Part shown: piece by piece, positions 33,791 to 56,052 of the stretch
How positions within the stretch are numbered: the stretch's first letter is position 1
Layout: every line of letters begins with the position of its first letter
From: Sneathiellales bacterium
Lineage (GTDB): Bacteria > Pseudomonadota > Alphaproteobacteria > JANQFL01
Length of the DNA stretch: 64,000 nt
NCBI GenBank assembly: GCA_028277845.1
Contig: JANQFL010000040.1
Coordinates: 1-64,000 of the forward strand
Direction: 5' to 3'
The notes under the pieces: generated by a model
Databases searched by the model: none
Told to the model about the DNA's origin: nothing
What the model saw: the letters and a program-made list of their open reading frames with translations, nothing else
Made by a program: the position numbers and the translations under genes

Positions 33791-33796
33791 GCCGCC

Positions 33797-41404: not shown

Positions 41405-41608
41405 ATGCCGATCGAGGACCTGGTGGAGCGGTTCGGATCCGCCCATGGCGAGGCGTGGTGCAAGGGGTTTGCCGTCGGCCGGACCATATTCTGGGATGCC
41501 GCCGAGACGTGGTTTTCCGGTGTCGTCGACGACGAAGAGGCTGTGCGGCAGTTCGGTGACGTGTTTACCCGGCTGTCACAGACCTGGCCGGCCGCCGAGG
41601 CGACATAA
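41405..41608 (+). CDS. Small ORF (67 aa), possibly another remnant of the decayed gene; function unknown
   Basis: MPIEDLVERFGSAHGEAWCKGFAVGRTIFWDA... Flanked by AT-rich tracts. Weak support. Confidence 0.25.
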   Translation: MPIEDLVERFGSAHGEAWCKGFAVGRTIFWDAAETWFSGVVDDEEAVRQFGDVFTRLSQTWPAAEAT

Positions 41609-41776
41609 CCTGTCCCGGTCCGAGGCCATCACGACCCGCCGGCCCGCCGGCCGCCCATAATCCGACTCCACAAAACTCCATGGCGCCGACCGAACGGCGA
41701 TTCGTGCCGGCTTCGCGTATTGACAACGCCGCCGGCCGGAGTCAGTATGTGCAAATAATAAAACATTGTTTTATAT

Positions 41777-42112
41777 ATGAGACAAGCGATGACGGACGAG
41801 TGGCACGACGTAGGCGCGGACAGCGACGTTTCGGACGAAGACGCCTTTTCCGCGAAGGTGGGCGACACCGAGATCGGCATCTATCGGATCGACGGCACGC
41901 TGTATGCGCTGGAGGACGTGTGCCCCCACGCCTACGCCCTGCTGTCGCAGGGCTTCGTCGACGGCGATCAGGTGGAATGCCCGCTGCACGAGGCCGTCTT
42001 CCACATTCCCTCGGGCAAATGCCTGAAGGAGCCCGCCGACCGGGATCTCAAGACCTACGAAGTCAAAGCCGAGAACGGGCGTCTGTTGGTCCGTGCCTCG
42101 AACGCAGGCTGA
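41777..42112 (+). CDS. Rieske [2Fe-2S] ferredoxin component of an oxygenase system
   Basis: CPH...(17)...CPLH motifs, about 107-111 aa. Alternative start at ATG 41789. Confidence 0.8.
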   Translation: MRQAMTDEWHDVGADSDVSDEDAFSAKVGDTEIGIYRIDGTLYALEDVCPHAYALLSQGFVDGDQVECPLHEAVFHIPSGKCLKEPADRDLKTYEVKAENGRLLVRASNAG

Positions 42113-42125
42113 AGGAGCGACGGCC

Positions 42126-42422
42126 ATGACCCACAACGTGCATCTGAAGCCTTGGAACAAACCCAAACCCAACGAGGTGGCCGGCAAGGGCAATATCGAA
42201 GTGCCGGGCCAGGTGGAAAACATCGTCTGGCAGACCCGGGCCGCGCCGCCGACGGAATATGAAACCCGTCTCGGCGATGCCCTGGAAGTCGCGTTCGACG
42301 AAGGCATCGAGGATCTGGATGGCCTGGTGGCCAAGCTGAACGAAATCGGCGTACAGACCCAGGACGGACAGGCCTGGACCGTGGACGCGTTCACCGCCGA
42401 AATGGCGCGGCTCGGTTACTGA
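42126..42422 (+). CDS. Hypothetical protein (99 aa), conserved-looking, unknown function
   Basis: ATG 13 nt after the ferredoxin stop, with AGGAGCGACGG upstream. GC3-rich. MTHNVHLKPWNKPKPNEV... Confidence 0.4.
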   Translation: MTHNVHLKPWNKPKPNEVAGKGNIEVPGQVENIVWQTRAAPPTEYETRLGDALEVAFDEGIEDLDGLVAKLNEIGVQTQDGQAWTVDAFTAEMARLGY

Positions 42423-42437
42423 GAGACGGACCGCGCC

Positions 42438-43238
42438 GTGCAGCAGCCCCGGATCGAATACAAGGACATCACCAAGCGTTTTATGCAGAACGGCGGTGGC
42501 GAGGGCAGCGCCATCGTCGCCGTCGAGGACGTAACCCTGTCCATCAAGGACAAGGAAGTGGTGTCGCTCATCGGCCCGAGCGGCTGCGGCAAGAGCACGC
42601 TGCTCAATATGGGGTCGGGCCTGTATCCGCCCAGTGAAGGCGAGGTCAAGGTCGACGGCGAACGGGTCAGCGGCCCCAACGACCATGTCGCCTTCATGCT
42701 GCAGAAGGATTTGCTGCTGCCGTGGCGCACCATCCGCCAGAACGTGGAACTGGGACAGGAGATCAAGGGCACGCCCGGCAAGCAGCGCCGGGAGCGGGCC
42801 CGCGAACTGCTGGAGAAATGCCACCTCGGCCAGTTCGCCGATCACTATCCCCATCAACTGTCGGGCGGCATGCGCCAGCGCGCGGCCCTGGCCCGGACTC
42901 TGGCGGTCGATCCCACGGTGCTGCTGATGGACGAGCCGTTTTCAGCCCTGGACGCCCAGACCAAGATGATCCTGCAGCAGGACCTGGCGGAAACCCTGGA
43001 ACGGGAAGGCAAGACGGCGCTGTTCATCACCCACGACCTGGCCGAATCGGTGGCCCTGTCGGACCGCATTCTGGTCATGAGCCAGCGGCCGGGCACCATC
43101 ATCAGCGAAATCGTCGTCGACATCCCCGGCCGGGGCAATCCCATGGAGCGGCGCCACCAGCGCAAGGTGGCCGACTATGTCGGCGAATTGATGGAACTGC
43201 TGCACGTCGGCGATCAGGCCGCCGGAGACGAGATTTAG
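42438..43238 (+). CDS. ABC transporter ATP-binding protein, NitT/TauT (nitrate/sulfonate/taurine) family
   Basis: GTG start. Walker [25 protein letters not shown]. SsuB/TauB-like size (266 aa). Confidence 0.8.
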   Translation: MQQPRIEYKDITKRFMQNGGGEGSAIVAVEDVTLSIKDKEVVSLIGPSGCGKSTLLNMGSGLYPPSEGEVKVDGERVSGPNDHVAFMLQKDLLLPWRTIRQNVELGQEIKGTPGKQRRERARELLEKCHLGQFADHYPHQLSGGMRQRAALARTLAVDPTVLLMDEPFSALDAQTKMILQQDLAETLEREGKTALFITHDLAESVALSDRILVMSQRPGTIISEIVVDIPGRGNPMERRHQRKVADYVGELMELLHVGDQAAGDEI

Positions 43239-43285
43239 ACCCAGGTACGACAGCCAAGACAATCACAACAACACGGGAGGATCCC

Positions 43286-44278
43286 ATGTTCAGACGCAGA
43301 CATCTTTTGAAGACCGTTGCCGCCGCCACTGCCATGGCGACCCTGGCCTGGGCCGCGGCGCCCGAACGCGCGGCCGCGGCCGACGACGTCACCTATCTGC
43401 TGCCGGCTCCGGCATTCCTGCCCGCCTTCGGTCCGTGGATGCTGGCCAAGGCGCGCGGCTACTATGCCGATGAGGGCTTGAATGTCACGTTCCAGTCGGC
43501 CAAGGGCGGCGTCGACGTGGCCAAGCAGGTCGGCGCCGGCAATGCCGTCGTCGGCGGCGCCATCGGCGATACGCCGATCATCGTCCGCGCCAACGGCATC
43601 CCCGTGAAGGCCGTCGCCGTGCTGGGCGGCAAGTCGCTGATGCAGTTGGTCGCCCACCAGAGCACCGGCATCAAGGGCCCGGGCGACCTGAAGGGCAAGA
43701 CCGTCACCACCATGTCCTACCAGGACACCACGTATTATGCCCTGCTCGGCATGCTGGCCTCTGCCGGTTTGAGCAAGAACGACGTCAACGCCCAGGCCGC
43801 CGGCCCGGCCGGCACCTGGAAACTGTTCATCGCCGGCGAGGCCGACGCCATGGCCGCGGTGCCCGACTGGATCGGTATCGCCATGGGCGCCGGCAAGAAA
43901 CTGACCATCATTCCCGCCGACGATCATTTCCGCTCCATGGCCCAGGCCATTCTGGCCTCCGACGACACCATCAAGAACAATCCGGAACTGGTCGGCAAGC
44001 TGGTGCGGGCGACGCTGCGCGGCATGAAGGACATCATGGCCGACCCGGCCGCCGCGGCGAAGGACTATGTCGCCGCCGTACCGCAGCACAAGGGCAAGGA
44101 GAAAGCCATGGAAGGCGTCTTCCGGCTCTACAACAAGTACGTCTATCCCGGCCAGAAGACGGTCGGCGAGATGGACGAAGGCCGGCTGAATGAGCTGCAG
44201 GCGTTTTACGTCAAACAAGGGATCGTCCGGCGGGCGACGCCGCTCGACGACCTGTACACCAACCAGTTCGTCAACTGA
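43286..44278 (+). CDS. ABC transporter substrate-binding protein, NMT1/SsuA/TauA-like, Tat signal
   Basis: MFRRRHLLKTVAAATAMATLAWAA twin-arginine signal. 330 aa. RBS GGGAGG. Confidence 0.75.
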   Translation: MFRRRHLLKTVAAATAMATLAWAAAPERAAAADDVTYLLPAPAFLPAFGPWMLAKARGYYADEGLNVTFQSAKGGVDVAKQVGAGNAVVGGAIGDTPIIVRANGIPVKAVAVLGGKSLMQLVAHQSTGIKGPGDLKGKTVTTMSYQDTTYYALLGMLASAGLSKNDVNAQAAGPAGTWKLFIAGEADAMAAVPDWIGIAMGAGKKLTIIPADDHFRSMAQAILASDDTIKNNPELVGKLVRATLRGMKDIMADPAAAAKDYVAAVPQHKGKEKAMEGVFRLYNKYVYPGQKTVGEMDEGRLNELQAFYVKQGIVRRATPLDDLYTNQFVN

Positions 44279-44308
44279 GCGCAACCAGGCCGGACACGGG
44301 AGGATGAT

Positions 44309-45103
44309 GTGAACGGATCCAGTGGCATGAGCCTGCGCAACGGCGTGATCTCCAGCGCCGTGTTGCTGGTCGTCATTCTGGCCGCCTGGGAATGGGGTCC
44401 CGCCGCCATGGGCGTGCCGGCCTACATCATTCCACCCGTGTCCGACGTGGTGCGCGAATTCATGATCATGCAGGAAACCGAGAAACTGCTGATGCATTCC
44501 AGCATCACGGCGGCCGAAGTGGTGGCCGGCTTCGTTCTCGGATCCCTGCTGGGCATGGTCGTCGGCTACATCCTCGGCATGTCGCCGGCGACCGAGCTGG
44601 TGCTGTCGCCCTATATTCTGGCGTTGCAGATCGCGCCCAAGGTGGCGTTCGCGCCCCTGTTCGTCATGTGGTTCGGCTACACGGTCTACCCCAAGGTGCT
44701 GGTCGCCATCCTGATCGTATTCTTCCCGGTCATGGTCAATGTGCTGACGGCGATCCGCACCGTGGACCCCGACCTCAAGAACCTGGCGCGTTCGTTCCGT
44801 GCCAGCCGCTGGACCATTTTCCGCAAGATCGAGTTCCCCGCCGCCATGCCGCCGCTGTTTTCCGGCCTGCGCATCGGTGCGACGCTGGCGGTCATCGGCG
44901 TGGTCGTGGGCGAGATGGTCGGTGGCAATGCCGGCCTCGGTTACTTGCTGGTGTTCGGCGAGGGATCGGGCAACACCGCCATGGTGTTCGTCTCGATCAT
45001 CCTGCTGACCCTGATCGGCATCGCCGCCTATCTGGCGGTCATCTTCGCCGAGCGCAAAGTGCTTCACTACCTGCCCAAGGACAATGCCGCGCACTCGGTG
45101 TGA
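44309..45103 (+). CDS. ABC transporter permease, NitT/TauT family (SsuC-like)
   Basis: GTG start 5 nt after GGGAGG. 6 TM. EAA-like loop (RSFRASRWTIFRKIEFPAAMP). Confidence 0.8.
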   Translation: MNGSSGMSLRNGVISSAVLLVVILAAWEWGPAAMGVPAYIIPPVSDVVREFMIMQETEKLLMHSSITAAEVVAGFVLGSLLGMVVGYILGMSPATELVLSPYILALQIAPKVAFAPLFVMWFGYTVYPKVLVAILIVFFPVMVNVLTAIRTVDPDLKNLARSFRASRWTIFRKIEFPAAMPPLFSGLRIGATLAVIGVVVGEMVGGNAGLGYLLVFGEGSGNTAMVFVSIILLTLIGIAAYLAVIFAERKVLHYLPKDNAAHSV

Positions 45104-45111
45104 CGCCGGCA

Positions 45112-46155
45112 ATGGAGGACATCATGGCAACCTCGGAAATGGACACGTTGATCGAAGACCGCATCAACAAGGGGCTGAAGAACTACTGGTATCCGGTCCT
45201 GCCCAGTTGGGGCGTGCACGACGCGCCGGTCGGCATCACCCGCCTGTCCGAGAACATCGTGCTGTGGCGCGACGAGGACGGCAAGATCAACGCCATCGAG
45301 GACCGCTGCCCCCATCGCGGCGCCCGCCTGTCGCTGGGCTGGAACCTGGGTGACCGGGTCGCCTGCTGGTACCACGGCGTCGAGGTCGACAAGACCGGCA
45401 CGGTGCGCGACGTGCCCGCCGTCGATAGTTGCCCGCTGGAAGGTCAGGCCTGCCTGCGCGCCTACCCGGCGGAGGAACGGCAAGGCGCCATCTTTCTCTA
45501 TTTCGGCGACGATCCGCAGGCCGAGCCCTGCGACCTGGAACTGCCCGAGGAACTGTCGAGCGACGACTACAGTTCGTTCCTGTGTACGGCGGTGTGGAAG
45601 TGTAACTACCGCTACGCCGTCGATAATGTCATGGACCCCATGCACGGCGCCTATCTGCATGCGGTGTCCCATTCCATGGCGTCGGGCGACAAGACCGCCG
45701 AGATGAAGGCGCGCAAGACCGACACCGGTTTCGTGTTCGAAAAGACAACCCAGGCCGGCGTCAACTTCGACTGGGTCGAGTTCGGCGAGAGCGGCGCCAT
45801 GTGGCTGCGCCTGTCGATCCCCTACCAGAAGAAATACGGTCCCGGCGGCCCGTTCTACATCATCGGCTTCGCCACGCCCATGGACGAGGAGCACACGCGG
45901 GTCTTCTTCTGGCGCGTGCGCAAGGTTCAGGGCTGGCAACGGGACGTCTGGCGCTTTCTTTACCGTGACCGGCTCGAAGGGCTGCACTGGAACGTGCTGG
46001 AGCAGGACCGCATCGTGCTCGAGCAGATGTCGCCCAATGCCCGCGACCATGAGTTTCTGTATCAGCACGACGTTGGCCTCAGCCGCCTGCGCCGTATCCT
46101 GAAGAACAAGGCGCGCGAGCAGGTCGAGGCGCAACTGACCCAGGCAGCCGAGTAG
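45112..46155 (+). CDS. Rieske non-heme iron oxygenase, alpha (catalytic) subunit, phthalate-family type (no beta subunit present)
   Basis: Rieske CPHRGARLS...CWYHG. Mononuclear Fe His motif DPMHGAYLH. Alternative start ATG 45124 (GGAGGA upstream). Confidence 0.8.
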   Translation: MEDIMATSEMDTLIEDRINKGLKNYWYPVLPSWGVHDAPVGITRLSENIVLWRDEDGKINAIEDRCPHRGARLSLGWNLGDRVACWYHGVEVDKTGTVRDVPAVDSCPLEGQACLRAYPAEERQGAIFLYFGDDPQAEPCDLELPEELSSDDYSSFLCTAVWKCNYRYAVDNVMDPMHGAYLHAVSHSMASGDKTAEMKARKTDTGFVFEKTTQAGVNFDWVEFGESGAMWLRLSIPYQKKYGPGGPFYIIGFATPMDEEHTRVFFWRVRKVQGWQRDVWRFLYRDRLEGLHWNVLEQDRIVLEQMSPNARDHEFLYQHDVGLSRLRRILKNKAREQVEAQLTQAAE

Positions 46156-46166
46156 GCGGCAGGGCG

Positions 46167-46931
46167 ATGACGGCTTCGGTTCCATTGAACGGCAGACGCA
46201 TTCTCGTGACCGGCGCGGCGCGCGGGTTGGGGGCGGCGTTCGCCGGTGCCGCGGCCGCGGCCGGCGCCAAGGTGGCGCTGGCCGATATTCTCGAGGACCG
46301 TGGCCGTGAAACCACTGCGGCGATCCGCAATGCCGGCGGTGACGCGGTATTTGTACCGCTCGACCTGGCCGATCCGGCCTCAATCGAGCGCTGTGCCGGC
46401 GCGGCGACCGAGGCAATGGGCGGGCTGGATGGGGTGGTGAACAACGGTGCCATCGCCACCGGCATCGGTGGCAAGACCATGGACGAGATCGACATCGAAA
46501 CCTGGGACCGGGTGATGACGGTGAACATTCGTGGCACCTGGCTCATGACCAAGGCCGCCATCGGCGCGTTGAAGGAGTCGGGTAAGGGGCGGGTCGTCAA
46601 TGTCGCCTCCGACACCGCCCTTTGGGGTGCGCCCAAGCTGATGCACTACGTCGCCAGCAAGGGCGCGGTCATGGCCATGACGCGGGCGATGGCGCGCGAA
46701 CTGGGCAATAACGGTATTGCCGTCAATGCCGTTGCGCCCGGCCTGACCCTGGTCGAGGCCACCGAATACGTGCCCGAGGACCGTCACCGTCACTATGTGG
46801 ACGGCCGGGCCATCAACCGGGCGCAGGAGCCGGACGACGTGGTCGGTCCGGTGTTGTTTCTACTGTCCGACGGGGCCGGTTTCACCACGGGACAGGTGCT
46901 GCCGGTCAACGGCGGCTTCGTTTTCAACTGA
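46167..46931 (+). CDS. SDR-family oxidoreductase
   Basis: TGAARGLG cofactor motif, Y-x3-K (YVASKGAV). 254 aa. Confidence 0.8.
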   Translation: MTASVPLNGRRILVTGAARGLGAAFAGAAAAAGAKVALADILEDRGRETTAAIRNAGGDAVFVPLDLADPASIERCAGAATEAMGGLDGVVNNGAIATGIGGKTMDEIDIETWDRVMTVNIRGTWLMTKAAIGALKESGKGRVVNVASDTALWGAPKLMHYVASKGAVMAMTRAMARELGNNGIAVNAVAPGLTLVEATEYVPEDRHRHYVDGRAINRAQEPDDVVGPVLFLLSDGAGFTTGQVLPVNGGFVFN

Positions 46932-46950
46932 GCATGCAGGGAGAGCACAT

Positions 46951-47508
46951 ATGAGTGCAGCGCCGCAACCGATCGACGACCAATACGAGGACCTGCCGAC
47001 TTGGAGCAAGCCGGAGGGGACATCGCTGGCCGACTGGGTGGAAAGCCGTATCGCCCGCTTCGACACCCGCCGGTATGACTGGGACGCCCTGAAGTTCCAG
47101 GCCGACTACGATCCGAAGTACAAACGCGCCCAGATGCGGTATCTCGGTACCGGCGCCGCCGGCGTGACGTCCGACAGCAACACGGTGCCGTCGGAACACT
47201 TCACCTTCTCGACCATGGTGTTGCCGGCGGGATGCGAAGGCCCCATGCACGTGCACGACGATGTGGAGGAAGTGTTCTTCATGCTGCGCGGCCGCATCAA
47301 GCTCTTCGTGGAGATGGACGGTGAGACCGTGGAAACCGTTCTCAACGAACGGGACCTGGTGTCGGTGCCGCCGAAGCTCTACCGCGGACTGCTCAATATC
47401 GGCCAGGAAGAGGCACTGATGTGCGTCATGCTGGGCACGCCCAAGCCGAAGATCCCGACCTACCCGCCGGATCATCCGCTGGCCGGCATCAAGCGGCCGA
47501 AGAAGTAG
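46951..47508 (+). CDS. Cupin-domain protein
   Basis: PMHVHDDVEEVFFMLRGRIKL cupin motif. Start ATG 46951 after GGGAGAG. 185 aa. Confidence 0.55.
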   Translation: MSAAPQPIDDQYEDLPTWSKPEGTSLADWVESRIARFDTRRYDWDALKFQADYDPKYKRAQMRYLGTGAAGVTSDSNTVPSEHFTFSTMVLPAGCEGPMHVHDDVEEVFFMLRGRIKLFVEMDGETVETVLNERDLVSVPPKLYRGLLNIGQEEALMCVMLGTPKPKIPTYPPDHPLAGIKRPKK

Positions 47509-47537
47509 GCGGGCAATTCGGAGACGGACGTGCATTC

Positions 47538-48371
47538 ATGGACCCGACGGCACAGGACCTGCTCGCGGCCTACCCCGAGGACAGCATCACCGCGGGCGGC
47601 CGCCGCATCAGCTATCGCCAGGCCGGCTCCGGCCGGCCGGTGGTGCTGCTGCACGGCATCGGTTCGGGGTCCGGGTCCTGGGTCCGGCTGCTGCCGATCC
47701 TGGAAGGGCGAAACCGGCTCGTCGCCTGGAACGCGCCGGGTTACGGAACGTCCGAACGCCTCGAACCGTCGCACCCCGAGGCGACGGACTATGCCGCCGC
47801 CTTGGCGGACTTCATCACCGCGCTCGACATCCAGCGGCCCGTTCTGGTCGGCCACTCGTTGGGGGCGCTGATGGCGGCGGCGTACACGATTCGGCACGTG
47901 GAGACGATATCCGGCTTGGTGCTGGGGAGTCCGGCGCAGGGACATGGACACCTGGCGCCCGACGAGCGCGAAAACCGGCTCGCCAGCCGGCTCTACGCCA
48001 TGGCCAAGTACGGTCCCGAAGGCAACGCCGACCGGCGGGCGAACAAGCTGCTGTCGGAGAAAGCCGACCGGATATCCCGCGACCTCGTGCACTGGAACAT
48101 GGCGCGGCTCAATCCCGATGGCTACGCCCAGGCCGCCCGTATGCTGTCGACCGGAACATTGATCGACGATGTGGCGCAGATCGAAACAGACATTCTCGTC
48201 GTCTGCGGATCGGAAGACGCCATCACGCCACCCGATGGGGCCTCCGGAGTCGCCGAAGCCGCGCCGAAGAGTGCATTTCGTCTCATGGACGGTGCCGGGC
48301 ATGCCTGTTATGTCGAGCAGCCGCATGAATTCGCCCGTTTGTTGGGCGGCTATCTGGAAGACCGCTTATGA
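47538..48371 (+). CDS. Alpha/beta hydrolase (meta-cleavage-product hydrolase-like)
   Basis: VVLLHGIGSGSGSW and nucleophile elbow GHSLGA. 277 aa. Stop overlaps iclR start (ATGA). Confidence 0.7.
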   Translation: MDPTAQDLLAAYPEDSITAGGRRISYRQAGSGRPVVLLHGIGSGSGSWVRLLPILEGRNRLVAWNAPGYGTSERLEPSHPEATDYAAALADFITALDIQRPVLVGHSLGALMAAAYTIRHVETISGLVLGSPAQGHGHLAPDERENRLASRLYAMAKYGPEGNADRRANKLLSEKADRISRDLVHWNMARLNPDGYAQAARMLSTGTLIDDVAQIETDILVVCGSEDAITPPDGASGVAEAAPKSAFRLMDGAGHACYVEQPHEFARLLGGYLEDRL

Positions 48372-49186
48372 GTAACGATTTGGACAGCGGGCAGGAACGG
48401 TATCTGGTTCCCGGGTTGGTTCGGGGCATCCGGATACTGCGGTTGTTCCGCAGCGACCGGCCGGTGATTTCCGCACCCGAAATGGCGCAGGAGCTGAACA
48501 TCCCCCGGTCCACCGTGTTCCGCCTGGCCCAGACCCTGGAGTTTCTCGGCTTGCTCGAGAAGGTGGAGCACGGCCAGTCCTACCGCCTCGGTGTCAGCCT
48601 GCTTTCCCTGGGTTTCGAGTTCCTCGCGTCGCTGGACATCGCCGAATTGGGCCGGCCCATCGCCGATGCATTGGCGGACCGCACCGGACTGTCGAGCCAC
48701 GTGGTCATTCGCGACGGCACGGACGTGGTGGTCGTGTACAAGGCGGCCGGCCGTTCGGCGTTTACCGGCGCTCTGACTCCCGGCGCCCGTCTTCCCGCCC
48801 ATGCGACCGTTTTGGGACGGGTAATTTTGGCGGACATGCCGGATGGCGAATTGGATGCGCTTTACGGCGGCAAGGCGCTGGAGGCGTCGAGCGACAAGAC
48901 ACCGGTTCGCTTGGACGATCTGAAAAAGCTTCTGGCGGAAGACCGGACACGTGGCTATGCCGTCAGCGATTCGTTCTTCGAGCAGGGCATTTCCGCCATT
49001 GCCGCACCGGTGCGCGACCATACCGGCCGCGCGATCGGCGCCATCAATACGACCATTCTCGGCGCCGCCGACGCCCGGGAAGACCTGGACGCTCTCATCG
49101 TTCAGGTCTGCGACTCCGCCGATCAGCTTTCACGGTCGTTGAATTTCCGGCCCGACGGCATGGGAGCGCAGCGCCGTGCCGTATGA
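48368..49186 (+). CDS. IclR-family transcriptional regulator
   Basis: N-terminal wHTH (ISAPEMAQELNIPRSTVFRLAQTLE) plus C-terminal IclR effector domain. 272 aa. Confidence 0.8.
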   Translation: MSNDLDSGQERYLVPGLVRGIRILRLFRSDRPVISAPEMAQELNIPRSTVFRLAQTLEFLGLLEKVEHGQSYRLGVSLLSLGFEFLASLDIAELGRPIADALADRTGLSSHVVIRDGTDVVVVYKAAGRSAFTGALTPGARLPAHATVLGRVILADMPDGELDALYGGKALEASSDKTPVRLDDLKKLLAEDRTRGYAVSDSFFEQGISAIAAPVRDHTGRAIGAINTTILGAADAREDLDALIVQVCDSADQLSRSLNFRPDGMGAQRRAV

Positions 49187-49973
49187 CCTGACCGACTTCC
49201 GTGCCGTGGTCACCGGCGGGTCGTCGGGAATCGGCCTGGCGACGGCACGACTTCTGCTGACGTGTGGCGCCCGGGTGGCGATCTGCGGCCGGGACGAAAC
49301 CCGCCTGGAAAACGCCCACCGGTCGCTTGTGGAACTAGGTGGTTCCGACCGGTTGATGTCGGTGTCCTGCAATGTGCTGGAGCAAGAGGGGATCGATCGA
49401 TTCGTCGGCCAGGTCGAGGATCGCTTCGGTGGTCTCGACATTCTCGTCAACAACGCCGGGCAGGGGCGCATGTCGACATTCGCCGATACCGCCGACCAGG
49501 ACTGGCGCGATGAACTCGACCTCAAGTTCTTCGGCGTGATTCGTCCGACCCGCGGCTTTCTGCCGTTGCTGCAGAAATCCCACGCCGGCGCCATCGTCTG
49601 CGTCAATTCCCTGCTGGCCTTGCAGCCCGAACCGCACATGGTGGCGACATCGGCGGCGCGGGCCGGACTGCTGAGCCTGGTGCATTCTCTGGCAATCGAA
49701 TTCGCGCCCATGAACATCCGGGTCAATTCCATCCTGCTCGGCCTTGTGGACTCGGGCCAGTGGCGCCGGCGTTTCGAAAACCGTGACGACCCGTCCCTGG
49801 ATTGGGAAGCCTGGTGTGACCAACTGGCATCTCAGAAAGCCATTCCACTCCGCCGGCTTGGCCGGCCCGAAGAAGCCGCCGAAGCGATCGTTTTCCTGGC
49901 CTCGCCCGCCAGTGCCTATACGACCGGTTCGTCCATCGATGTCTCGGGAGGTCTCGCACGTCATGTCGCTTGA
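49176..49973 (+). CDS. SDR-family oxidoreductase
   Basis: TGGSSGIGLA, NNAG. The catalytic Tyr-x3-Lys is not located in this read. 265 aa. 11-nt overlap with iclR. Confidence 0.8.
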   Translation: MPYDLTDFRAVVTGGSSGIGLATARLLLTCGARVAICGRDETRLENAHRSLVELGGSDRLMSVSCNVLEQEGIDRFVGQVEDRFGGLDILVNNAGQGRMSTFADTADQDWRDELDLKFFGVIRPTRGFLPLLQKSHAGAIVCVNSLLALQPEPHMVATSAARAGLLSLVHSLAIEFAPMNIRVNSILLGLVDSGQWRRRFENRDDPSLDWEAWCDQLASQKAIPLRRLGRPEEAAEAIVFLASPASAYTTGSSIDVSGGLARHVA

Positions 49974-51609
49974 ACGCACCGTCGGTGACGCCGTCGCCGA
50001 ATTTCTGGAGGTCAATGACGTCCCCGTCACGTTCGGCGTCATATCCATTCACAACATGCCGATCCTCGATGCGATTGCACAACGCGGCAACCTAAGGTTC
50101 GTGCCGGCCCGCGGCGAGGCGGGCGCGGTGAACATGGCTGACGCGGCGACCCGGGCCTCCGGCAGGCCGTGTGTCGCCTTCACCAGCACGGGTACGGCGG
50201 CCGGTAACGCAGCCGGCGCCATGGTCGAGGCGCAAACGGCCGGCACGCCCATGTTGCACATCACCGGACAGATCGAACGGCCTTATCTCGACCGCAACCA
50301 CGGCTACATCCATGAGGCCCGCGATCAGATGGGCATGCTCAACGCGGTGTCCAAGGCCGCGTACCGGGCCGACGTACCCGAGGACGTGGTATCTACGTTG
50401 CAGAATGCCCTGACCGCCGCCCTGACGGCACCGACCGGACCGGTCAGCGTGGAAATCCCCATCGATGTCCAGAAGGCCAAGCTGGGCAACGGCGCAATGC
50501 CGGCGCCATCGATGGCGGACGAAGTGCAGACCGATCTGCTTGCGATCGACGAACTGGCGGACCGGGCGGCGTCGGCCCGCCGTCCGGTCCTGTGGCTCGG
50601 CAGCGGTGCTCTCAAGGCCGGCGATGCCGTCAAACGGCTGCTCGGCATGGGCGTCGCCGTGGTGACCACCACCAACGGACGCGGCGTGGTGCCCGAGGAT
50701 CATCCGTTGTGCCTGGGCGCCTTCACGTCCGCGGCCCCGGTCGAGACATTGTTCGCGTCGTGCGATTTGATGCTGGTGGCTGGGTCGCGCCTGCGCGGCA
50801 ACGAAACCCTGAAGTATTCCCTGTCCCTGCCGTCGCCCCGGTACCGCATCGACGTCGATCCGGACGCGTTCGGCCATCCCTACGACATGGACGGCAATAT
50901 CGTCGGTGATGTCGCTGTCTCGTTGAACCGTTTGGCCGACCGTCTCGAGGGGCGCTTGCAGACCGATCCGGCGTTTGCCGCTGACGTGGCGGCGGCGCGC
51001 TCATCCGCGGAAGCCGCGTTGCGGCAGGATCTCGGTGTCTACGCCACGTTATTCGACGCGCTCCGGCAGACCATGGGCGATCGCTTCACCTGGGTGCGTG
51101 ACGTGACGATTTCCAACAGCATGTGGGGCAATAAGCTGCCGCCCATCGCGAACCCACGCCAGGCGGTGCATGCCGTCGGCGGCGGGATCGGCCAGGGCCT
51201 GGCCATGGCCGTCGGCGCGGCCTTGGCCGGCACGGGCCGCAAGACGGTGTGTCTATCCGGCGACGGCGGCTTCCAGCTCAACATCGGCGAGTTGGCGACG
51301 GCGGCGCAGGAACAGGCCGACCTGTTGGTCCTGCTGATGAACAGCAGCGGCTATCAGGTCATCCGCAATATCCAGGATGTCGAATATGGTGGCCGACATC
51401 CTTATGTCGACCTGTTGACGCCGGATTTTGCCCAGGTTTGCGGGGCCGTTGGCGTGCGCCACGTCAAGGTCTCGGAGCTGTCGGATGCCGAGGATATCCT
51501 GGCCAAGGCGATGGCGCACACCGGTACGGTGGTCGTGGAAATCGACATGGCCGCGTGCGGCGATTTCGCCCGGCCGTTCGCCGGGCCGCCGGTACGCAAG
51601 GCCGGCTGA
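49963..51609 (+). CDS. Thiamine-diphosphate-dependent enzyme (acetolactate synthase / benzoylformate decarboxylase-like)
   Basis: TPP N-terminal, central and C-terminal domains. GDGGFQ motif. Start ATG 49963 overlaps the SDR stop. Confidence 0.75.
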   Translation: MSLERTVGDAVAEFLEVNDVPVTFGVISIHNMPILDAIAQRGNLRFVPARGEAGAVNMADAATRASGRPCVAFTSTGTAAGNAAGAMVEAQTAGTPMLHITGQIERPYLDRNHGYIHEARDQMGMLNAVSKAAYRADVPEDVVSTLQNALTAALTAPTGPVSVEIPIDVQKAKLGNGAMPAPSMADEVQTDLLAIDELADRAASARRPVLWLGSGALKAGDAVKRLLGMGVAVVTTTNGRGVVPEDHPLCLGAFTSAAPVETLFASCDLMLVAGSRLRGNETLKYSLSLPSPRYRIDVDPDAFGHPYDMDGNIVGDVAVSLNRLADRLEGRLQTDPAFAADVAAARSSAEAALRQDLGVYATLFDALRQTMGDRFTWVRDVTISNSMWGNKLPPIANPRQAVHAVGGGIGQGLAMAVGAALAGTGRKTVCLSGDGGFQLNIGELATAAQEQADLLVLLMNSSGYQVIRNIQDVEYGGRHPYVDLLTPDFAQVCGAVGVRHVKVSELSDAEDILAKAMAHTGTVVVEIDMAACGDFARPFAGPPVRKAG

Positions 51610-51613
51610 CGCC

Positions 51614-52414
51614 ATGCCTCTTTCGGTCCTGATGATCGGCTACGGCACCATCGCCCGGTATGTATCGGCAGCGGTTGCGGGACGGCCGGATATCGCCATC
51701 ACCTCAGTCCTGGCCCGGCCCGGGCGCGAAAATGCGGCTTCCGACGTCTTCGGAAGCGATGTGGACATCGTGACATCCGTTGCCGACGTCACGGCTTCGG
51801 TCGACGTGGCGCTGGAATGCGCCGGCCATGAAGGCCTGCGGCAACACGGATCTGCCGTGCTGGACCAGGGAACGGACCTGATCGTCGCTTCGGTCGGCGG
51901 CTTGACCGATGACGGGCTGGCATCCGACCTGGAAGCCGCGGCGAAGCGGGGTAAGGCACAGATCGAAGTCCTTTCGGGTGCGGTTGGCGCACTCGATGCC
52001 CTGGCGTCGGCGCGGCAGGGTGGCCTGGAGACGGTGACCTACCAGGGACGCAAGCCGCCGGCCGGCTGGAAGGGCAGCCCGGCGGAGGAGGCGTGCGACC
52101 TGGATCGCCTTGCCGAACCCTTCGTGCATTTCGAAGGCTCGGCACGGGACGCGGCATCGCGTTACCCGAAAAACGCCAATGTGGCCGCGGCCGTCGCCCT
52201 GGCCGGTGTCGGCCTGGATGCGACACGCGTCAGGCTGATCGCGGATCCCAAGGCGCCCGGCAATGAACACGAAATCGCGGCGGAAGGCGCGTTCGGCCGT
52301 TTTCAATTCAACATCGTCGGCAATCCGCTGCCCGGCAATCCGCGCTCCTCTTCGTTGACCGCCATGAGCGCCGTGCGGGCCCTGGACAACCGCGTCTCGG
52401 CCATGAGGATCTAG
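51614..52414 (+). CDS. Aspartate dehydrogenase (NadX)-like NAD(P)-binding domain protein
   Basis: MIGYGTIARYV Rossmann start. Length and layout of the Asp-DH family. 266 aa. Confidence 0.5.
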   Translation: MPLSVLMIGYGTIARYVSAAVAGRPDIAITSVLARPGRENAASDVFGSDVDIVTSVADVTASVDVALECAGHEGLRQHGSAVLDQGTDLIVASVGGLTDDGLASDLEAAAKRGKAQIEVLSGAVGALDALASARQGGLETVTYQGRKPPAGWKGSPAEEACDLDRLAEPFVHFEGSARDAASRYPKNANVAAAVALAGVGLDATRVRLIADPKAPGNEHEIAAEGAFGRFQFNIVGNPLPGNPRSSSLTAMSAVRALDNRVSAMRI

Positions 52415-52416
52415 CC

Positions 52417-53889
52417 GTGTCTGACGGGACGTTGGATATCCTGGTTGGCGGTGCCTGGCGTCCGGGCAATGGCGCACGGTATGCGACGACGTTTCCCGCC
52501 GACGGCAGCAGCAACGCGGAACTGCACGCCGCCGATGCCGCGGACGTGGACGATGCGGTCGAGGCCGCCGACCGGGCCTGGCGGGCAACCGGCTGGCGCG
52601 ATCCGATGCCGCACGACCGGGCGCGCGTTCTGTACCGTATCGCCGACCTGATCCGCGACCGTCATGAGGAACTGGCCCAGTTGCAGATGCGCGACAACGG
52701 CAAGCCGATCACTGAAACCCGTGCCCTCGTCGCGAGCGCCGCCAACACGTTCCAGTTCATGGGCGCCGCATGCGAGACCATGGAGGAGGAGATCACGCCG
52801 CCGCGCGGCGATTACGTGACCATGAGCACGTGGGAGCCCATGGGCGTCGTCGCCGCCATCACACCGTGGAATTCGCCCATTGCCAGCGAAGCGCAGAAAC
52901 TGGCGCCGGCCCTGGCCGCCGGCAACGCCGTCATCGTCAAGCCCGCCGAAGTGACGCCGTTGCTGGCCCTGGAACTGGGCCGGATTTGCGAACAGGCCGG
53001 CGTGCCTTCGGGGATCGTCAGCGTTTTGCCGGGCAAGGGATCGGTAGTGGGCGACGCGCTGGTGCGCCATCCCAAGGTGCGCAAGGTGTCGTTCACCGGC
53101 GGCACCGCGACGGGCAAATCCATCGCCGCCATCGCTGCCGAGAAGATGATGCCGGTAACCCTGGAACTGGGCGGCAAGTCGCCCACCGTGGTCTTCGACG
53201 ACACCGACCTGGACCACGCCGTCAATGGCGTGCTGTTCGGCATCTTTTCCTCGTCCGGTGAAAGCTGCATCGCCGGATCGCGCCTGTTCGTGCAGTCGGA
53301 CATCGCCGACGCCTTCATCGAACGCCTGGTGTCCAAGACGGAGTCCCTGCGTATCGGCGATCCGCGTGACGAGGTCACCCAGATGGGTCCGTTGATTTCC
53401 CACGCACACCAGGGTGTCGTCGAAGGCTATGTGCGCATGGGCGTCGACGAAGGTGGACAGGTGCTGGCCGGCGGCGCTCGGCCCGAGGGCGGCGTATTCG
53501 AGGCCGGCCCCTACTACCGGCCCACCATCATCGGCGGTTTGGCCAACGACGCCCGCATGTGCCAGGAAGAAATCTTCGGACCGGTTCTCGCGGTGTTGCG
53601 GTTCGACGACGAAGAGGACCTGCTGGCGCAGGCGAACGATTCGGTCTTCGGATTGGCCGCGGGCCTTTGGACGCAGGACTACAAACGGGCCTGGCGCGTG
53701 GCGCGGCGCCTGGATACCGGCACGGTGTGGATCAATACCTACAAACAGTTCTCCATCACGACGCCGTTCACCGCCCGCAAGGCCAGCGGTATCGGCCGCG
53801 ACAAGGGCCGCATGGCCATCCGCGAGTACATGAATCAGAAAAGCCTCTATTGGGGCCTGAACGATGCCCCCATTCCATGGGCCGGCTAA
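52417..53889 (+). CDS. NAD(P)-dependent aldehyde dehydrogenase
   Basis: ELGGKSP (catalytic Glu motif) and SGESCIAGSR (catalytic Cys). 490 aa. GTG start 2 nt after the previous stop. Confidence 0.85.
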   Translation: MSDGTLDILVGGAWRPGNGARYATTFPADGSSNAELHAADAADVDDAVEAADRAWRATGWRDPMPHDRARVLYRIADLIRDRHEELAQLQMRDNGKPITETRALVASAANTFQFMGAACETMEEEITPPRGDYVTMSTWEPMGVVAAITPWNSPIASEAQKLAPALAAGNAVIVKPAEVTPLLALELGRICEQAGVPSGIVSVLPGKGSVVGDALVRHPKVRKVSFTGGTATGKSIAAIAAEKMMPVTLELGGKSPTVVFDDTDLDHAVNGVLFGIFSSSGESCIAGSRLFVQSDIADAFIERLVSKTESLRIGDPRDEVTQMGPLISHAHQGVVEGYVRMGVDEGGQVLAGGARPEGGVFEAGPYYRPTIIGGLANDARMCQEEIFGPVLAVLRFDDEEDLLAQANDSVFGLAAGLWTQDYKRAWRVARRLDTGTVWINTYKQFSITTPFTARKASGIGRDKGRMAIREYMNQKSLYWGLNDAPIPWAG

Positions 53890-53905
53890 GACGGGAGCGA
53901 AACGC

Positions 53906-54835
53906 ATGACCATCACAGGGATCGACGGCATCACCTACGGCGTGGAGGACATGGACGCCTGCACCCGCTTTCTGGCCGATTGGGGTCTGACCGAGGTGTC
54001 CCGCGCCGCCGACCGGGTCGGTTGCGAAACCCTGGACGGCACCGAAGTCTGGGCCGTCGACGGCGCCGCGTCCGACCTGCCGCCGGCGGTCGAGGACGGC
54101 CCGACCCTGCGCCGGGTCACATGGGGCGTTTCCGACCAGGCGGCCCTGGGCGCTTTGCGCGCCGCGCTGCACGACACCACGGCTGTCCAGGATACGGATG
54201 ACGGGTTTAGCTGCGAGGATCCCAACGGCATCACCCTGTCGTTCCGGGTCAGCCGGCGCCGGTCCGTGTCGATCACAGGCGCGCCGGTGAACACGGTCGA
54301 CCAGACGCCCCGGGTCGACCGGCGAGCGCCGGTCTACGACCGCGCCGAGCCGGTCAAGGTGGGCCATGTGGTGTTCTTCGTCGCCGACGTGGCCGAGGCC
54401 GTGGCATTCTATACCGGACACCTCGGGTTCCATGTGTCCGACTGTTATCCCGGTGTCGGGTATTTCCTGCGCTGCCGGGAGGAAGGCGGCCACCACGACC
54501 TGTTCCTGCTGCAGACGCCCGACCGCAAGCGCGGCCTCAATCACGTCGCCTTCACGGTGCGCGACCTGGAGGAAGTGTTCGGCGGCGGCATCCACATGAA
54601 CGCCCGCGGCTGGCGGACCCAGATCGGCCCGGGCCGCCATCCCATTTCGTCGGCCTATTTCTGGTACGTGCACAATCCCTGCGGCGCGCTGGCCGAGTAC
54701 TACACCAACGAGGACTACTGCACCGCCGCCTGGCAACCCAAGGAATGGGAACGCGGCAATGACAATTTCGCCGAATGGGCCATCGCCGGGGGTATCGATC
54801 CGGAGACCAGGCGCCAGGTCCGCAAGACGGATTGA
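53906..54835 (+). CDS. Two-domain vicinal-oxygen-chelate (VOC) extradiol ring-cleavage dioxygenase-like protein
   Basis: Two glyoxalase/extradiol modules (HVVFFVAD..., LNHVAFTVRD...). 309 aa. Confidence 0.65.
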   Translation: MTITGIDGITYGVEDMDACTRFLADWGLTEVSRAADRVGCETLDGTEVWAVDGAASDLPPAVEDGPTLRRVTWGVSDQAALGALRAALHDTTAVQDTDDGFSCEDPNGITLSFRVSRRRSVSITGAPVNTVDQTPRVDRRAPVYDRAEPVKVGHVVFFVADVAEAVAFYTGHLGFHVSDCYPGVGYFLRCREEGGHHDLFLLQTPDRKRGLNHVAFTVRDLEEVFGGGIHMNARGWRTQIGPGRHPISSAYFWYVHNPCGALAEYYTNEDYCTAAWQPKEWERGNDNFAEWAIAGGIDPETRRQVRKTD

Positions 54836-54846
54836 CGGGCACGGCG

Positions 54847-56043
54847 ATGGACGACGTCGTCATCATCGGCGCGGGGCAGGCCGGGGGGTGGGTCGCCAAA
54901 ACCCTGCGTGCCCAGGGGTTCGATGGCCGCATCACCTTGATCGGCGCCGAAGCCCATGCGCCCTACGAGCGGCCGCCTCTGTCGAAAGCGGTGTTGCTGG
55001 GCGAGGCGGACCCGGGCACCACGGCGCTGTTTTCCGAATCCGATTTCGCCGCGCTCGAACTGTCGTTCCTGCCGGGGACCCGGGCCGAGGCCATCGACCG
55101 CGCGGTCCGCGCCGTGACGACGGACGACGGACAAACGGTTGGCTATGACAAACTGGTCATCGCCACCGGCGGCACGGCGCGGCCGCTGCCGGTACCCGGC
55201 GCGGCCCAGCACGCGCTTTATCTGCGCAGCCGCGACGACGCGGTGGTCCTGCACGAGCGGCTGGTGCGGGCCAAGAACGTCGCCATCGTGGGCGGCGGCT
55301 GGATCGGGCTGGAGGTCGCGGCCGCGGCGACCAAGTTGGGCGCCGCCGTCACGGTCTACGAAGCGGCGGAGCGGCTGTGCGGCCGTGCGGTGCCGCCGGA
55401 GGTTTCCGATTATCTGTTCGATCTGCACACCCGCCATGGCGTGACGGTGCACCTGAATGCGGCGGTCGAACGTATCGATGCCGGCACCGTGACCGTGGAC
55501 GGGGCGACGCAGCCGGTTGATCTGGTGATGGCCGGAATCGGCTTGGTGCCCGATACGGCCCTGGCCGCGGCCGCCGGGTTGGCGGTCGACAACGGCATCC
55601 TGGTGGACGGGGACGGGCGCACGTCGGACCCCGACATCCATGCCGTCGGCGACGTGGCGAACCGGGACAGCCCGGTGCTGGGCCGGCGTGTGCGGCTCGA
55701 ATCCTGGGGCAATGCCCAGGATCAGGGTGTCGCCGTCGCCAAGCATCTCCTGGGGATCGATCCCGGCGAGGAGGGTGTGCCGTGGTTCTGGTCCGACCAG
55801 TACGACGTCAATATGCAGATCCTCGGCCTGCCCGAGGCGTGGGGATCGCCGGTGCGGCGGCCCGGCGACGGGCCGGACCGGTTCTCCCTGTTTTATCTCG
55901 ACGGTGCGCGCCTGACGGCCGTCGTCGCCGCCAACAACGCCATGGATATCAAGATCGCCAAGCGCCTGATGGCCGCGGACAAGGCCGTCGATCCGCATAT
56001 GCTGGCCGATCCGGCGGCCAATCTCCGCGATCTTCTGCGTTAG
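54847..56043 (+). CDS. FAD-dependent ferredoxin-NAD(P)+ reductase component (pyridine nucleotide-disulfide oxidoreductase family)
   Basis: VVIIGAGQAGG and VAIVGGGWIGLE dinucleotide-binding motifs. 398 aa. Confidence 0.8.
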   Translation: MDDVVIIGAGQAGGWVAKTLRAQGFDGRITLIGAEAHAPYERPPLSKAVLLGEADPGTTALFSESDFAALELSFLPGTRAEAIDRAVRAVTTDDGQTVGYDKLVIATGGTARPLPVPGAAQHALYLRSRDDAVVLHERLVRAKNVAIVGGGWIGLEVAAAATKLGAAVTVYEAAERLCGRAVPPEVSDYLFDLHTRHGVTVHLNAAVERIDAGTVTVDGATQPVDLVMAGIGLVPDTALAAAAGLAVDNGILVDGDGRTSDPDIHAVGDVANRDSPVLGRRVRLESWGNAQDQGVAVAKHLLGIDPGEEGVPWFWSDQYDVNMQILGLPEAWGSPVRRPGDGPDRFSLFYLDGARLTAVVAANNAMDIKIAKRLMAADKAVDPHMLADPAANLRDLLR

Positions 56044-56052
56044 AAGGCTGTC

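Follow-up and report, generated by a model that had tools for sequence, protein, structure and literature searches.

What compound is degraded by the 16-gene operon that lies within a 64,000-nt stretch of DNA from a Sneathiellales bacterium (contig JANQFL010000040.1, positions 1 to 64,000; hereafter, the window)? The operon is of the Rieske/extradiol catabolic type, with an unusual lower pathway and an unexplained partner protein for its oxygenase, and the cluster is one instance of a very widespread set of genes whose function is unassigned in the searchable literature. We propose, with about even confidence, that the operon allows the cell to take up and fully break down kynurenic acid (4-hydroxyquinoline-2-carboxylate) or a very close analogue such as xanthurenate. 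The assignment to kynurenate is drawn from chemical parsimony and gene context, and it could fall either way. We hold a fuller version tentatively, at somewhat short of an even chance: that the cluster is the genetic basis of kynurenate degradation, with three elements that have not been described before, namely a cupin dioxygenase that opens 4,6-dihydroxypicolinate, a catabolic aspartate dehydrogenase that acts on iminoaspartate, and a small protein of a new family (HTH_62) that is an obligate partner of the Rieske oxygenase.

In the host, tryptophan catabolism yields kynurenic acid as one of its major end products, and this compound is a ligand of GPR35, AhR, and NMDA receptors. To our knowledge, no genes have been assigned since 1961-63 to the enzymes of its bacterial degradation (EC 1.14.99.2, 1.3.1.18, 1.13.11.10, and those of the later steps). 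In 2024, a review still referred only to work from 1961 on kynurenate degradation (PMC11354673). If our proposal is correct, then the cluster provides candidate genes for these orphan enzymes in tractable organisms, a reason for "aspartate dehydrogenase" to occur outside of NAD synthesis in many proteobacteria, and a function for 3LF1, a short-chain dehydrogenase/reductase (SDR) with an atypical active center that was solved by structural genomics. It would also tell us which bacteria, both pathogenic and environmental, are able to remove kynurenate: the opportunistic pathogens Acinetobacter baumannii, Klebsiella, and the Burkholderia cepacia complex could consume a host metabolite that is immunomodulatory and neuroactive.

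A conserved cluster of catabolic genes

We used the operon's cupin as a probe against one genome per GTDB species. At least 584 species carry the cupin, and we took the best 80 loci from these. Gene-presence counts refer to the 64 cupin-anchored loci that have full 10-kb flanks, each of which was screened for the 16 genes of the window. Domain families were assigned with Pfam and NCBIfam, and NCBIfam scores were judged against each model's own cut-off.

The genes for the cupin, an alpha/beta hydrolase, an atypical SDR (SDR2), and an enzyme that depends on thiamine pyrophosphate (the TPP enzyme) were each present in all 64 loci, and the gene for an aspartate dehydrogenase (AspDH) was present in 63. 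Then come the vicinal oxygen chelate (VOC) extradiol dioxygenase, the aldehyde dehydrogenase (ALDH), and the IclR-family regulator (56 loci each), the Rieske oxygenase (55), HTH_62 (53), and a classical SDR (SDR1; 51). The FAD-dependent reductase was found in 32 of the 64 loci, the Rieske ferredoxin in 25, and the genes for the NitT/TauT-type importer in just 12-15. The conserved unit thus has two parts: HTH_62, the oxygenase, SDR1, and the VOC dioxygenase; and the cupin, hydrolase, SDR2, TPP enzyme, AspDH, and ALDH. The initial annotation, which was made from the sequence of the window, had seen no obvious role for the TPP enzyme or the AspDH-like protein. Both are part of the invariant core, at 64/64 and 63/64 loci, and they are the strongest clues to the substrate.

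The cluster is present across Alpha-, Beta-, and Gammaproteobacteria. Burkholderia gladioli has the identical 13 non-transport genes in the identical order and has no ATP-binding cassette (ABC) transporter genes; Zobellella has a gene from the major facilitator superfamily (MFS) in their place; and Thiothrix (locus L069) has the exact gene order of the window, including the ABC genes between HTH_62 and the oxygenase. A. baumannii has a complete cluster, which adjoins pgaABCD, and the cluster is also found in Caballeronia, Cupriavidus, Klebsiella, Ralstonia, and the Burkholderia cepacia complex. A phthalate-dioxygenase-reductase (PDR)-type protein takes the place of the ferredoxin and reductase in 15 loci, as in Cupriavidus and Ralstonia. 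That is, the electron-transfer chain is swapped among the loci, from a Rieske ferredoxin with a glutathione-reductase-type reductase in the window to a PDR-type protein in those genera. The co-inheritance of nine catalytic functions across the three classes points to a single pathway.

Could these instead be two unrelated modules that travel together, one for the hydroxylation and cleavage of an aromatic ring and another (cupin, hydrolase, SDR2, TPP enzyme, AspDH, and ALDH) for a non-aromatic substrate? In Zobellella and Acinetobacter, the two blocks do have an MFS gene between them, conservation is more universal for the lower block than for the upper one, and there is presumably a cluster in Pseudomonas aeruginosa that lacks the oxygenase (see below). 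However, the blocks are interleaved in the window and in Burkholderia, Cupriavidus, Ralstonia, and Thiothrix; the oxygenase lies within 10 kb in 55 of the 64 cupin-anchored loci; and there is one IclR gene and one transporter per cluster. We consider two independent modules to be quite improbable.

A proposed pathway for kynurenate degradation

Hayaishi, Taniuchi, Kuno, and Horibata (1961-63) and Dagley and Johnson (1963) reportedly described a "quinoline" pathway for kynurenic acid in Pseudomonas (EC 1.14.99.2, 1.3.1.18, and 1.13.11.10). The named intermediates, whose names we confirmed, are 7,8-dihydroxykynurenate; 5-(3'-carboxy-3'-oxopropyl)-4,6-dihydroxypicolinate and its oxopropenyl form; and 5-(2'-carboxyethyl)-4,6-dihydroxypicolinate. 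These intermediates require that extradiol cleavage at the ring fusion be followed by the reduction of a C=C bond, the decarboxylation of a 2-oxoacid, and the oxidation of an aldehyde, which would account for SDR2, the TPP enzyme, and ALDH. The reaction types of the classical pathway and of the gene set are alike in number and order, from dihydroxylation with NADH and O2 and NAD-dependent dehydrogenation to the release of a C5 compound and a C4-N compound. The nine catalytic functions map one-to-one onto the classical pathway and are consistent with it, with the comparison being of enzyme classes only.

The upper part of the scheme resembles naphthalene-type (nah/pah) pathways, in which dioxygenation and diol dehydrogenation are followed by extradiol cleavage next to the ring fusion, leaving a -CH=CH-CO-COOH side chain. 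The nah/pah pathways remove this side chain with an isomerase and a hydratase-aldolase. The cluster has neither and has SDR2, the TPP enzyme, and ALDH instead.

Proposed dihydroxylation and first ring cleavage

In the proposed pathway, the reductase, the ferredoxin, and the Rieske oxygenase would act together as kynurenate 7,8-dioxygenase and would form the 7,8-cis-dihydrodiol. (All coordinates are positions in the window, and all of the operon's genes are on the + strand.) The oxygenase (45124-46155) has Rieske (PF00355, 77.6 bits) and VanA_C (PF19112, 52.3 bits) domains. The Rieske motif, CPHRG...CxYHG (CwYHG in this family), and the motif for the mononuclear Fe(II), DNxxDPMHGxxLH (DNvmDPMHGxyLH in this family), are kept in 72 orthologs, and the operon contains no open reading frame for a beta (small) subunit. 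With both motifs, the VanA_C domain, and electron-transfer partners in the same operon, this is an alpha-only oxygenase of the phthalate/VanA_C type. The partners are a Rieske-type [2Fe-2S] ferredoxin (41789-42112, with an alternative start at 41777; PF00355, 75.8 bits), whose best NCBIfam models are AndAb and HcaC, and an FAD-dependent ferredoxin-NAD(+) reductase of the glutathione-reductase type (54847-56043; PF07992 and PF14759), whose best models are AndAa and HcaD. These four NCBIfam models were all matched below their cut-offs. The prediction of a complete three-component oxygenase alongside an extradiol dioxygenase was borne out, as the ferredoxin, reductase, oxygenase, and VOC protein are all encoded in the operon.

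The oxygenase has 3587 homologs at E ≤ 1e-10, and the top 120 (56-89% identity) are all generically named. Orthologs at 65-89% identity are widespread, and some loci also contain paralogs of only 48-54% identity. SdmA was the only NCBIfam match (83 bits versus a cut-off of 600), so no family was reached. The best solved match is CarAa (E = 2.5e-22, mainly in the Rieske domain). A firm grouping with carnitine or glycine-betaine monooxygenases (CntA/GbcA) would have counted against the initial annotation, but the oxygenase does not group with these: structures of CntA matched at just E = 2e-4 to 4e-4. CarAa, 7fhr (phthalate dioxygenase-like), DdmC (dicamba demethylase), NdmA/B, OxoO, and KshA share the Rieske and VanA_C domains, the Fe-S and Fe(II) ligands, and the absence of a beta subunit with the window's oxygenase. 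These solved alpha-only oxygenases are distant from the window's oxygenase, which has a dedicated partner gene, that of HTH_62.

HTH_62 (42126-42422) was initially described as an unknown protein of 99 amino acids. It has 98 amino acids and belongs to PF20552 (96.7 bits), a family on which we found nothing relevant in the searchable literature. The gene is directly upstream of the oxygenase gene in 50 of 55 loci, and the adjacency survives both rearrangement of the cluster and the change of reductase. In the AlphaFold2 model, residues 1-43 are strongly conserved yet unstructured, whereas residues 44-97 fold into a bundle of three helices; no significant neighbor of the model was found in the Protein Data Bank (PDB). 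The model suggests that the N-terminal 43 residues fold onto a partner. HTH_62 could be an accessory subunit or a chaperone of the Rieske oxygenase rather than a DNA-binding protein. We do not know of a dedicated HTH_62 partner gene in any characterized Rieske system. In our scheme, HTH_62 enters at the dioxygenation step as an unexplained partner of the oxygenase.

SDR1 (46167-46931) would be the 7,8-dihydrodiol dehydrogenase and would form 7,8-dihydroxykynurenate. S148, Y161, and K165 are invariant in 67 of 67 orthologs, which is the classical Ser/Tyr/Lys center, and in Acinetobacter and Zobellella its gene is a neighbor of those for the oxygenase and the VOC protein. The two-domain VOC protein (53906-54835; PF00903) would then act as 7,8-dihydroxykynurenate 8,8a-dioxygenase and yield 5-(3-carboxy-3-oxopropenyl)-4,6-dihydroxypicolinate. 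The motifs GHvVFF, HH, NHVAF, and EYy are kept in 63 orthologs and contain the His-His-Glu ligands of Fe(II) and the catalytic His. None of the subfamily models was reached (HpaD, 74 versus 321 bits; catechol 2,3-dioxygenase, 64 versus 320; BphC, 49 versus 366). Its matches in the PDB are 3b59 (3e-16) and homoprotocatechuate dioxygenase (6e-14).

A proposed route from the side chain to central metabolites

We propose that SDR2 (49176-49973) reduces the C=C bond of the oxopropenyl side chain. SDR2 belongs to NF005468 (422.8 bits versus a cut-off of 266). It has T158-x3-R162 in place of Y-x3-K in 75 of 75 orthologs; in an alignment with sorbose reductase, Thr stands where that enzyme has Tyr, and Arg where it has Lys. 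With T-x3-R invariant, SDR2 is not an ordinary alcohol or ketone dehydrogenase. Its matches include the structure of an enoyl-CoA reductase. It also matches 3LF1 ("short chain oxidoreductase Q9HYA2") over its full length (331 bits), and T-x3-R is shared. 3LF1/3LF2 (Q9HYA2) is a solved close ortholog of SDR2.

The TPP enzyme (49963-51609) would decarboxylate the 2-oxoacid side chain to an aldehyde, and ALDH (52417-53889; PF00171, 555 bits) would oxidize the formylethyl group to a carboxyethyl group and give 5-(2-carboxyethyl)-4,6-dihydroxypicolinate. The TPP enzyme belongs to its own equivalog, NF005470 (788 bits versus a cut-off of 495), to which no function is assigned. Its top characterized family is the subfamily of 5-guanidino-2-oxopentanoate decarboxylases (288 bits, compared to 230 for acetolactate synthase). 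That family is represented by AruI, which we take to be paired with KauB (an aldehyde dehydrogenase) in the arginine transaminase pathway. In both pairs, an ALDH would act after the TPP-dependent decarboxylase, and a 2-oxoacid would be converted to the next lower carboxylate; the TPP enzyme of the window is below the cut-off for the AruI subfamily (288 versus 500). Going by this similarity, the members of its closest characterized family truly decarboxylate a 2-oxoacid and have an ALDH as their partner, which fits the proposed step. ALDH did not reach any equivalog cut-off.

With these assignments, the suggestion that an SDR and ALDH oxidize a methyl or alcohol side chain fits less well: SDR1 is a classical dehydrogenase encoded beside the oxygenase and the VOC protein, SDR2 has neither the Tyr nor the Lys of the catalytic center, and ALDH pairs with the TPP enzyme.

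The product of ALDH would be a 4,6-dihydroxypicolinate with a propionate at C5. This ring is a cyclic beta-dicarbonyl. We propose that the metal cupin (46951-47508) cleaves the pyridine ring oxidatively at C4-C5, in the manner of Dke1 or quercetinase. H100, H102, and E106 do not vary among orthologs, many Arg residues are likewise invariant, and the His of motif 2 is replaced by Arg; invariant metal ligands together with many Arg residues would be expected if the substrate is a dicarboxylate. The top Foldseek matches to its AlphaFold2 model (pLDDT 75) included MncA, Ni-quercetinase, 5-nitrosalicylate dioxygenase, and oxalate oxidase/decarboxylase, and the list also has non-oxidative cupins (sugar isomerases and epimerases). 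These matches are generic, for the most part metal-dependent enzymes, and mix oxidative and non-oxidative types, so the fold does not fix the reaction.

The hydrolase (47538-48371) would split the resulting 2-oxoglutaryl amide into 2-oxoglutarate and iminoaspartate (aminofumarate). The motif HG...GHSLG...D...GH is conserved, with a Ser-Asp-His triad. The initial annotation called this protein a meta-cleavage-type hydrolase. The triad is present, but no equivalog for meta-cleavage hydrolases was reached (BphD, 54 versus 462 bits; HsaD, 84 versus 400), and these scores are below those for PcaDC (107.9 versus 390) and the PcaD enol-lactonase (96.1 versus 255.85), which are the best NCBIfam models. 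The best solved relatives include CarC (6e-18) and HsaD/BphD (~1e-16). By these scores, the hydrolase appears to be no closer to meta-cleavage hydrolases than to enol-lactonases and esterases, with the distances being about equal.

This bears on another explanation, which is the meta-cleavage of a carbocyclic aromatic acid whose side chain is an amino acid or a propionate (phenylalanine- or phenylpropanoid-like). The hydrolase would then be a C-C hydrolase that releases aspartate or a related acid. Besides the similarity to CarC, HsaD, and BphD, the ferredoxin and reductase resemble HcaC/HcaD and AndAb/AndAa, and the regulator is an IclR protein of the PcaR/PobR type. On the other hand, the hydrolase is far below the BphD and HsaD cut-offs, and the cupin, SDR2, TPP enzyme, and ALDH are left without a role. 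Also, no 2-hydroxypentadienoate hydratase, aldolase, or acetaldehyde dehydrogenase was found in the window's operon or in the loci that we examined gene by gene (the others were screened for the 16 genes and for recurrent neighbors). We view this explanation as rather improbable.

Returning to kynurenate, AspDH (51614-52414) would reduce iminoaspartate to L-aspartate or would link it to oxaloacetate and NH3. AspDH belongs to NF009828 (337 bits versus a cut-off of 177), and the His in its NEHE motif has an aligned counterpart in the solved AspDH proteins 2dc1 and 1j5p. We take this His to be the catalytic one. On this basis, we assign the window's protein to the L-aspartate dehydrogenase (NadX/AspDH) family.

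Evidence for and against kynurenate

The end products of kynurenate in pseudomonads are given as glutamate and alanine (PMC11354673, citing Horibata et al. 1961). The proposed scheme agrees with this, as 2-oxoglutarate and aspartate would yield these amino acids. It also agrees with the products that Dagley and Johnson reportedly described in 1963, which were 2-oxoglutarate, oxaloacetate, and NH3. A. baumannii is reported to grow on kynurenic acid (PMC10732645); together with the complete cluster in A. baumannii, this fits the kynurenate proposal and serves as supporting context. The "kynurenine cluster" of A. baumannii (PMC9162365) is based on KynU and is unrelated to the cluster of the window. 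The carboxylate-type transporters of other loci (see below) and the PcaR/PobR-like regulator also fit kynurenate as the substrate.

Several points weigh against this reading. The classical pathway is known as biochemistry only: none of its enzymes has a known sequence, so the case for the cluster is one of chemical parsimony and gene context. The steps beyond 5-(2-carboxyethyl)-4,6-dihydroxypicolinate, which are the last three and which we assign to the cupin, hydrolase, and AspDH, are our own chemical proposal, and HTH_62 has no role in the scheme. There were no genes for converting tryptophan or kynurenine among the ~20 most frequent or best-placed of the ~110 neighbor families (those in at least 3 loci), although this is a weak negative. 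A compact variant of the cluster (described below) has no SDR1, VOC, or ALDH within 20 kb.

The last of these points concerns P. aeruginosa PAO1. We take PA3504-PA3514 to encode, in the same order as in the window, ALDH, AspDH (PA3505, presumably active in vitro), a TPP enzyme, an SDR, an IclR regulator, a hydrolase, a hypothetical protein, another SDR, and an ABC importer; the region includes the SDR Q9HYA2 (3LF1/3LF2). We also take this cluster to lack the Rieske oxygenase, ferredoxin, reductase, and VOC dioxygenase. If so, then the lower module may act on a separate substrate. We found nothing in the searchable literature on the function of PA3504-PA3507 or of the aspartate dehydrogenase PA3505. 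Similarly, no paper in the searchable literature ties the degradation of kynurenate to genes; subscription papers are outside this search, so prior publication is possible.

Variants of the cluster and other N-heterocycles

The compact variant comprises seven genes (HTH_62, oxygenase, cupin, hydrolase, SDR2, TPP enzyme, and AspDH). It was found in metagenome-assembled genomes of Alphaproteobacteria (L005, L012, L015, L023, L025, and L054, at positions of about 8.6-14.6 kb in these loci). By eye, it adjoins genes that resemble those for hopanoid biosynthesis (squalene-hopene cyclase and HpnD- and HpnH-like).

Halomonas-type loci (L014, L016, L036, L041, L052, L055, L062, L078, L083, and others) contain an FAD_binding_3 monooxygenase, genes for a tripartite ATP-independent periplasmic (TRAP) transporter, and a sulfatase-like gene. 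These lie upstream of VOC, the cupin, and the genes that follow. No Rieske oxygenase was seen within the 10-kb flank of these loci.

Molybdenum (Mo) hydroxylases of the xanthine-oxidase family adjoin the cluster in L023, L025, L054, and L087 (at least 3 lineages). In L085-L087, the cluster is adjoined by a LumK/LumL-like split pair of TPP proteins (~170 and 205 amino acids) and by LumJ-like genes. These neighbors (L085:697-2639, L086:3862-5796, and L087:1328-7792) are divergent from the cluster variant and include the split TPP pair, a class II aldolase, a Mo hydroxylase (769 amino acids, xanthine-oxidase family), a protein similar to dihydrodipicolinate synthase, and a second Rieske protein. 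They may form a funnel pathway for another N-heterocycle. Mo hydroxylases and a LumK/LumL-like pair are hallmarks of the catabolism of N-heteroaromatic compounds, and so they link the cluster to such compounds.

The Lum pathway for riboflavin and lumichrome in Nocardioides simplex uses a TPP enzyme, a Rieske dioxygenase, and an extradiol dioxygenase on an N-heteroaromatic compound (PMC12746152). It differs from the cluster in having a P450, several amidases, an alpha/beta Rieske oxygenase, and a two-subunit TPP enzyme, and in lacking AspDH and the cupin (PMC12746152). As the enzyme sets differ, we rejected the Lum pathway as the identity of the cluster.

These variants raise the possibility that the same pathway logic is applied to another N-heteroaromatic carboxylate: xanthurenate, 6-hydroxykynurenate, quinaldate after Mo-dependent 4-hydroxylation, or a quinoxaline or pyridine carboxylate. 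The Mo hydroxylases and the LumK/L-like proteins of some lineages, the FAD monooxygenases that adjoin the cluster in 18 loci, and the divergent oxygenases (paralogs of only 48-54% identity) suggest that the substrate varies around a common core. But AspDH, which is present in 63 of 64 loci, requires a N-C(COOH)-C-C(O) fragment, and this is specific to pyridines and quinolines that are 2-carboxylated and 4-oxygenated. So, the range of candidates is narrow and overlaps with our proposal. We regard a different N-heteroaromatic substrate as unlikely, though it is the main alternative to kynurenate.

The importer and the class of substrate

If the substrate is kynurenate, then a Tat-exported binding protein and an ABC permease and ATPase would import the acid in the first step. 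The ATPase is at 42438-43238 (PF00005), the binding protein at 43286-44278 (NMT1/SsuA fold; PF09084, 134.7 bits), and the permease at 44327-45103 (PF00528), with an alternative GTG start at 44309. The binding protein was correctly recognized as SsuA-like with a signal for twin-arginine translocation (Tat): its N-terminus, MFRRRHLLK, includes the motif RRRHLLK.

The initial annotation saw the importer, together with the dehydrogenase pair, as compatible with an aromatic sulfonate or with a nitro- or hydroxylated aromatic. Its components do not reach the equivalog cut-offs for importers of sulfonate, taurine, or nitrate. The binding protein scored 92.7 versus 163.5 for TIGR01728 (SsuA_fam) and 48.9 versus 304 for the taurine-binding protein, and its best match in the PDB is 4nmy (E = 9e-11). 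The best NCBIfam models for the ATPase are SaoA and the taurine ATPase, below their cut-offs (TauB, 199 versus 357), and for the permease they are SaoP and SsuC, also below their cut-offs (SsuC, 112 versus 347). By these comparisons, the importer can be assigned to the NitT/TauT superfamily and no further. An importer of thiamine precursors, which the NMT1/THI5 fold might bring to mind, is unsupported: Rfam had zero family matches, and thus no TPP riboswitch, across 39500-57000.

The importer was rightly described as an insertion within the operon. Its genes sit between HTH_62 and the oxygenase, which are directly adjacent in 50 of 55 loci; among the exceptions are loci such as Thiothrix L069, in which the ABC genes separate the two as they do in the window. 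The importer is a lineage-specific insert. The inference to its substrate did not hold up. Other loci have MFS transporters (35 loci), TRAP transporters (DctPQM), the tripartite tricarboxylate transporter (TTT) protein TctC, or porins. Since no more than 12-15 of the 64 loci have the importer, with MFS, TRAP (DctP), or TTT (TctC) taking its place elsewhere, an aromatic sulfonate is not a likely substrate. Across lineages, the transporter families argue for an organic carboxylate instead of a sulfonate. More broadly, the family of a transporter within a catabolic operon can be a poor guide to its substrate.

We therefore see the degradation of an aromatic sulfonate (of the toluenesulfonate or sulfobenzoate type), or of a nitro- or hydroxy-aromatic compound, with an SDR and ALDH oxidizing a methyl or alcohol side chain, as very improbable. 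The resemblance is real in two respects: the importer is in the NitT/TauT (SsuABC-like) superfamily, and TsaMBCD and PsbAC also combine an alpha-only Rieske oxygenase of the phthalate family with an SDR and ALDH, going by gene content. In contrast to those systems, the cluster lacks a conserved sulfonate transporter, there are no sulfite-handling genes in the flanks within the window, and the additional invariant genes (cupin, SDR2, TPP enzyme, and AspDH) are unexplained.

Operon structure, regulation, and flanking genes

The operon at 41789-56043 (+) was confirmed as 16 co-directional catabolic genes: every open reading frame was found at its expected coordinates, and the named families were supported by Pfam and NCBIfam. 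The arrangement is not due to chance, since at least 64 other species share this set of genes. All intergenic gaps are at most 48 nt. Gaps of 30 nt or less had been claimed, and this holds for most junctions, but with the best starts there are two gaps of 47-48 nt, between the ATPase and the binding protein and between the binding protein and the permease (with ATG at 44327). The remaining junctions have gaps of at most 29 nt or, in three cases, overlaps of 4-11 nt. Terminator-like sites in the region are at the level expected by chance (9 found versus 8.4 expected).

The IclR-family regulator (48368-49186; PF09339 and PF01614) is similar to PcaR, PcaU, and PobR, with a score of 160 for TIGR02431 (cut-off 284.75). 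It may regulate the operon, possibly at a palindrome at 41758-41774. By eye, there is a putative sigma-70 promoter at 41720-41748 (+), with TTGACA, a 17-nt spacer, and CAGTAT. A simple scan did not list this promoter because of its weak -10 hexamer. The palindrome (ATAAAACATTGTTTTAT, a perfect 17-bp palindrome) lies between this putative promoter and the first gene and overlaps the predicted transcription start; it is a candidate operator. Its core, AAACAnTGTTT, is found a single time in the 64-kb window. In L009, L069, L044, and L059, the ferredoxin gene is preceded by a similar site at a distance of 46-184 nt, and another is upstream of the first gene of the cluster in L013. The core recurs before the cluster in Zobellella, Thiothrix, some Acinetobacter, and one metagenome-assembled genome of Rhodospirillaceae. 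The palindrome is not kept in most other lineages, including most Burkholderiales.

Upstream of the operon are a divergent Sua5-like gene, an RpiR regulator, and a decayed iolC/DUF2090 gene. The remnants of the iolC-like kinase/DUF2090 gene are at 40888-41610, between the RpiR gene and the operon, and are in three frames. They include a 21-bp tandem duplication (VPQDPST twice, ~41208-41250) and a very AT-rich insert of ~60 bp (41342-41400). Farther upstream, at 33791-38179, is a hydantoinase/oxoprolinase A and B pair. Downstream, at 56053-62441, an amidase gene and genes for a peptide ABC transporter of the Opp/Dpp type are convergent with the operon. The stop codon of the amidase gene is 9 nt from the end of the operon, and there is no terminator-like site there. 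Elsewhere in the window, an open reading frame for 957 amino acids (20892-23762) coincides with an unusually strong AT skew (0.33 in 22001-24000) and with low GC at second codon positions.

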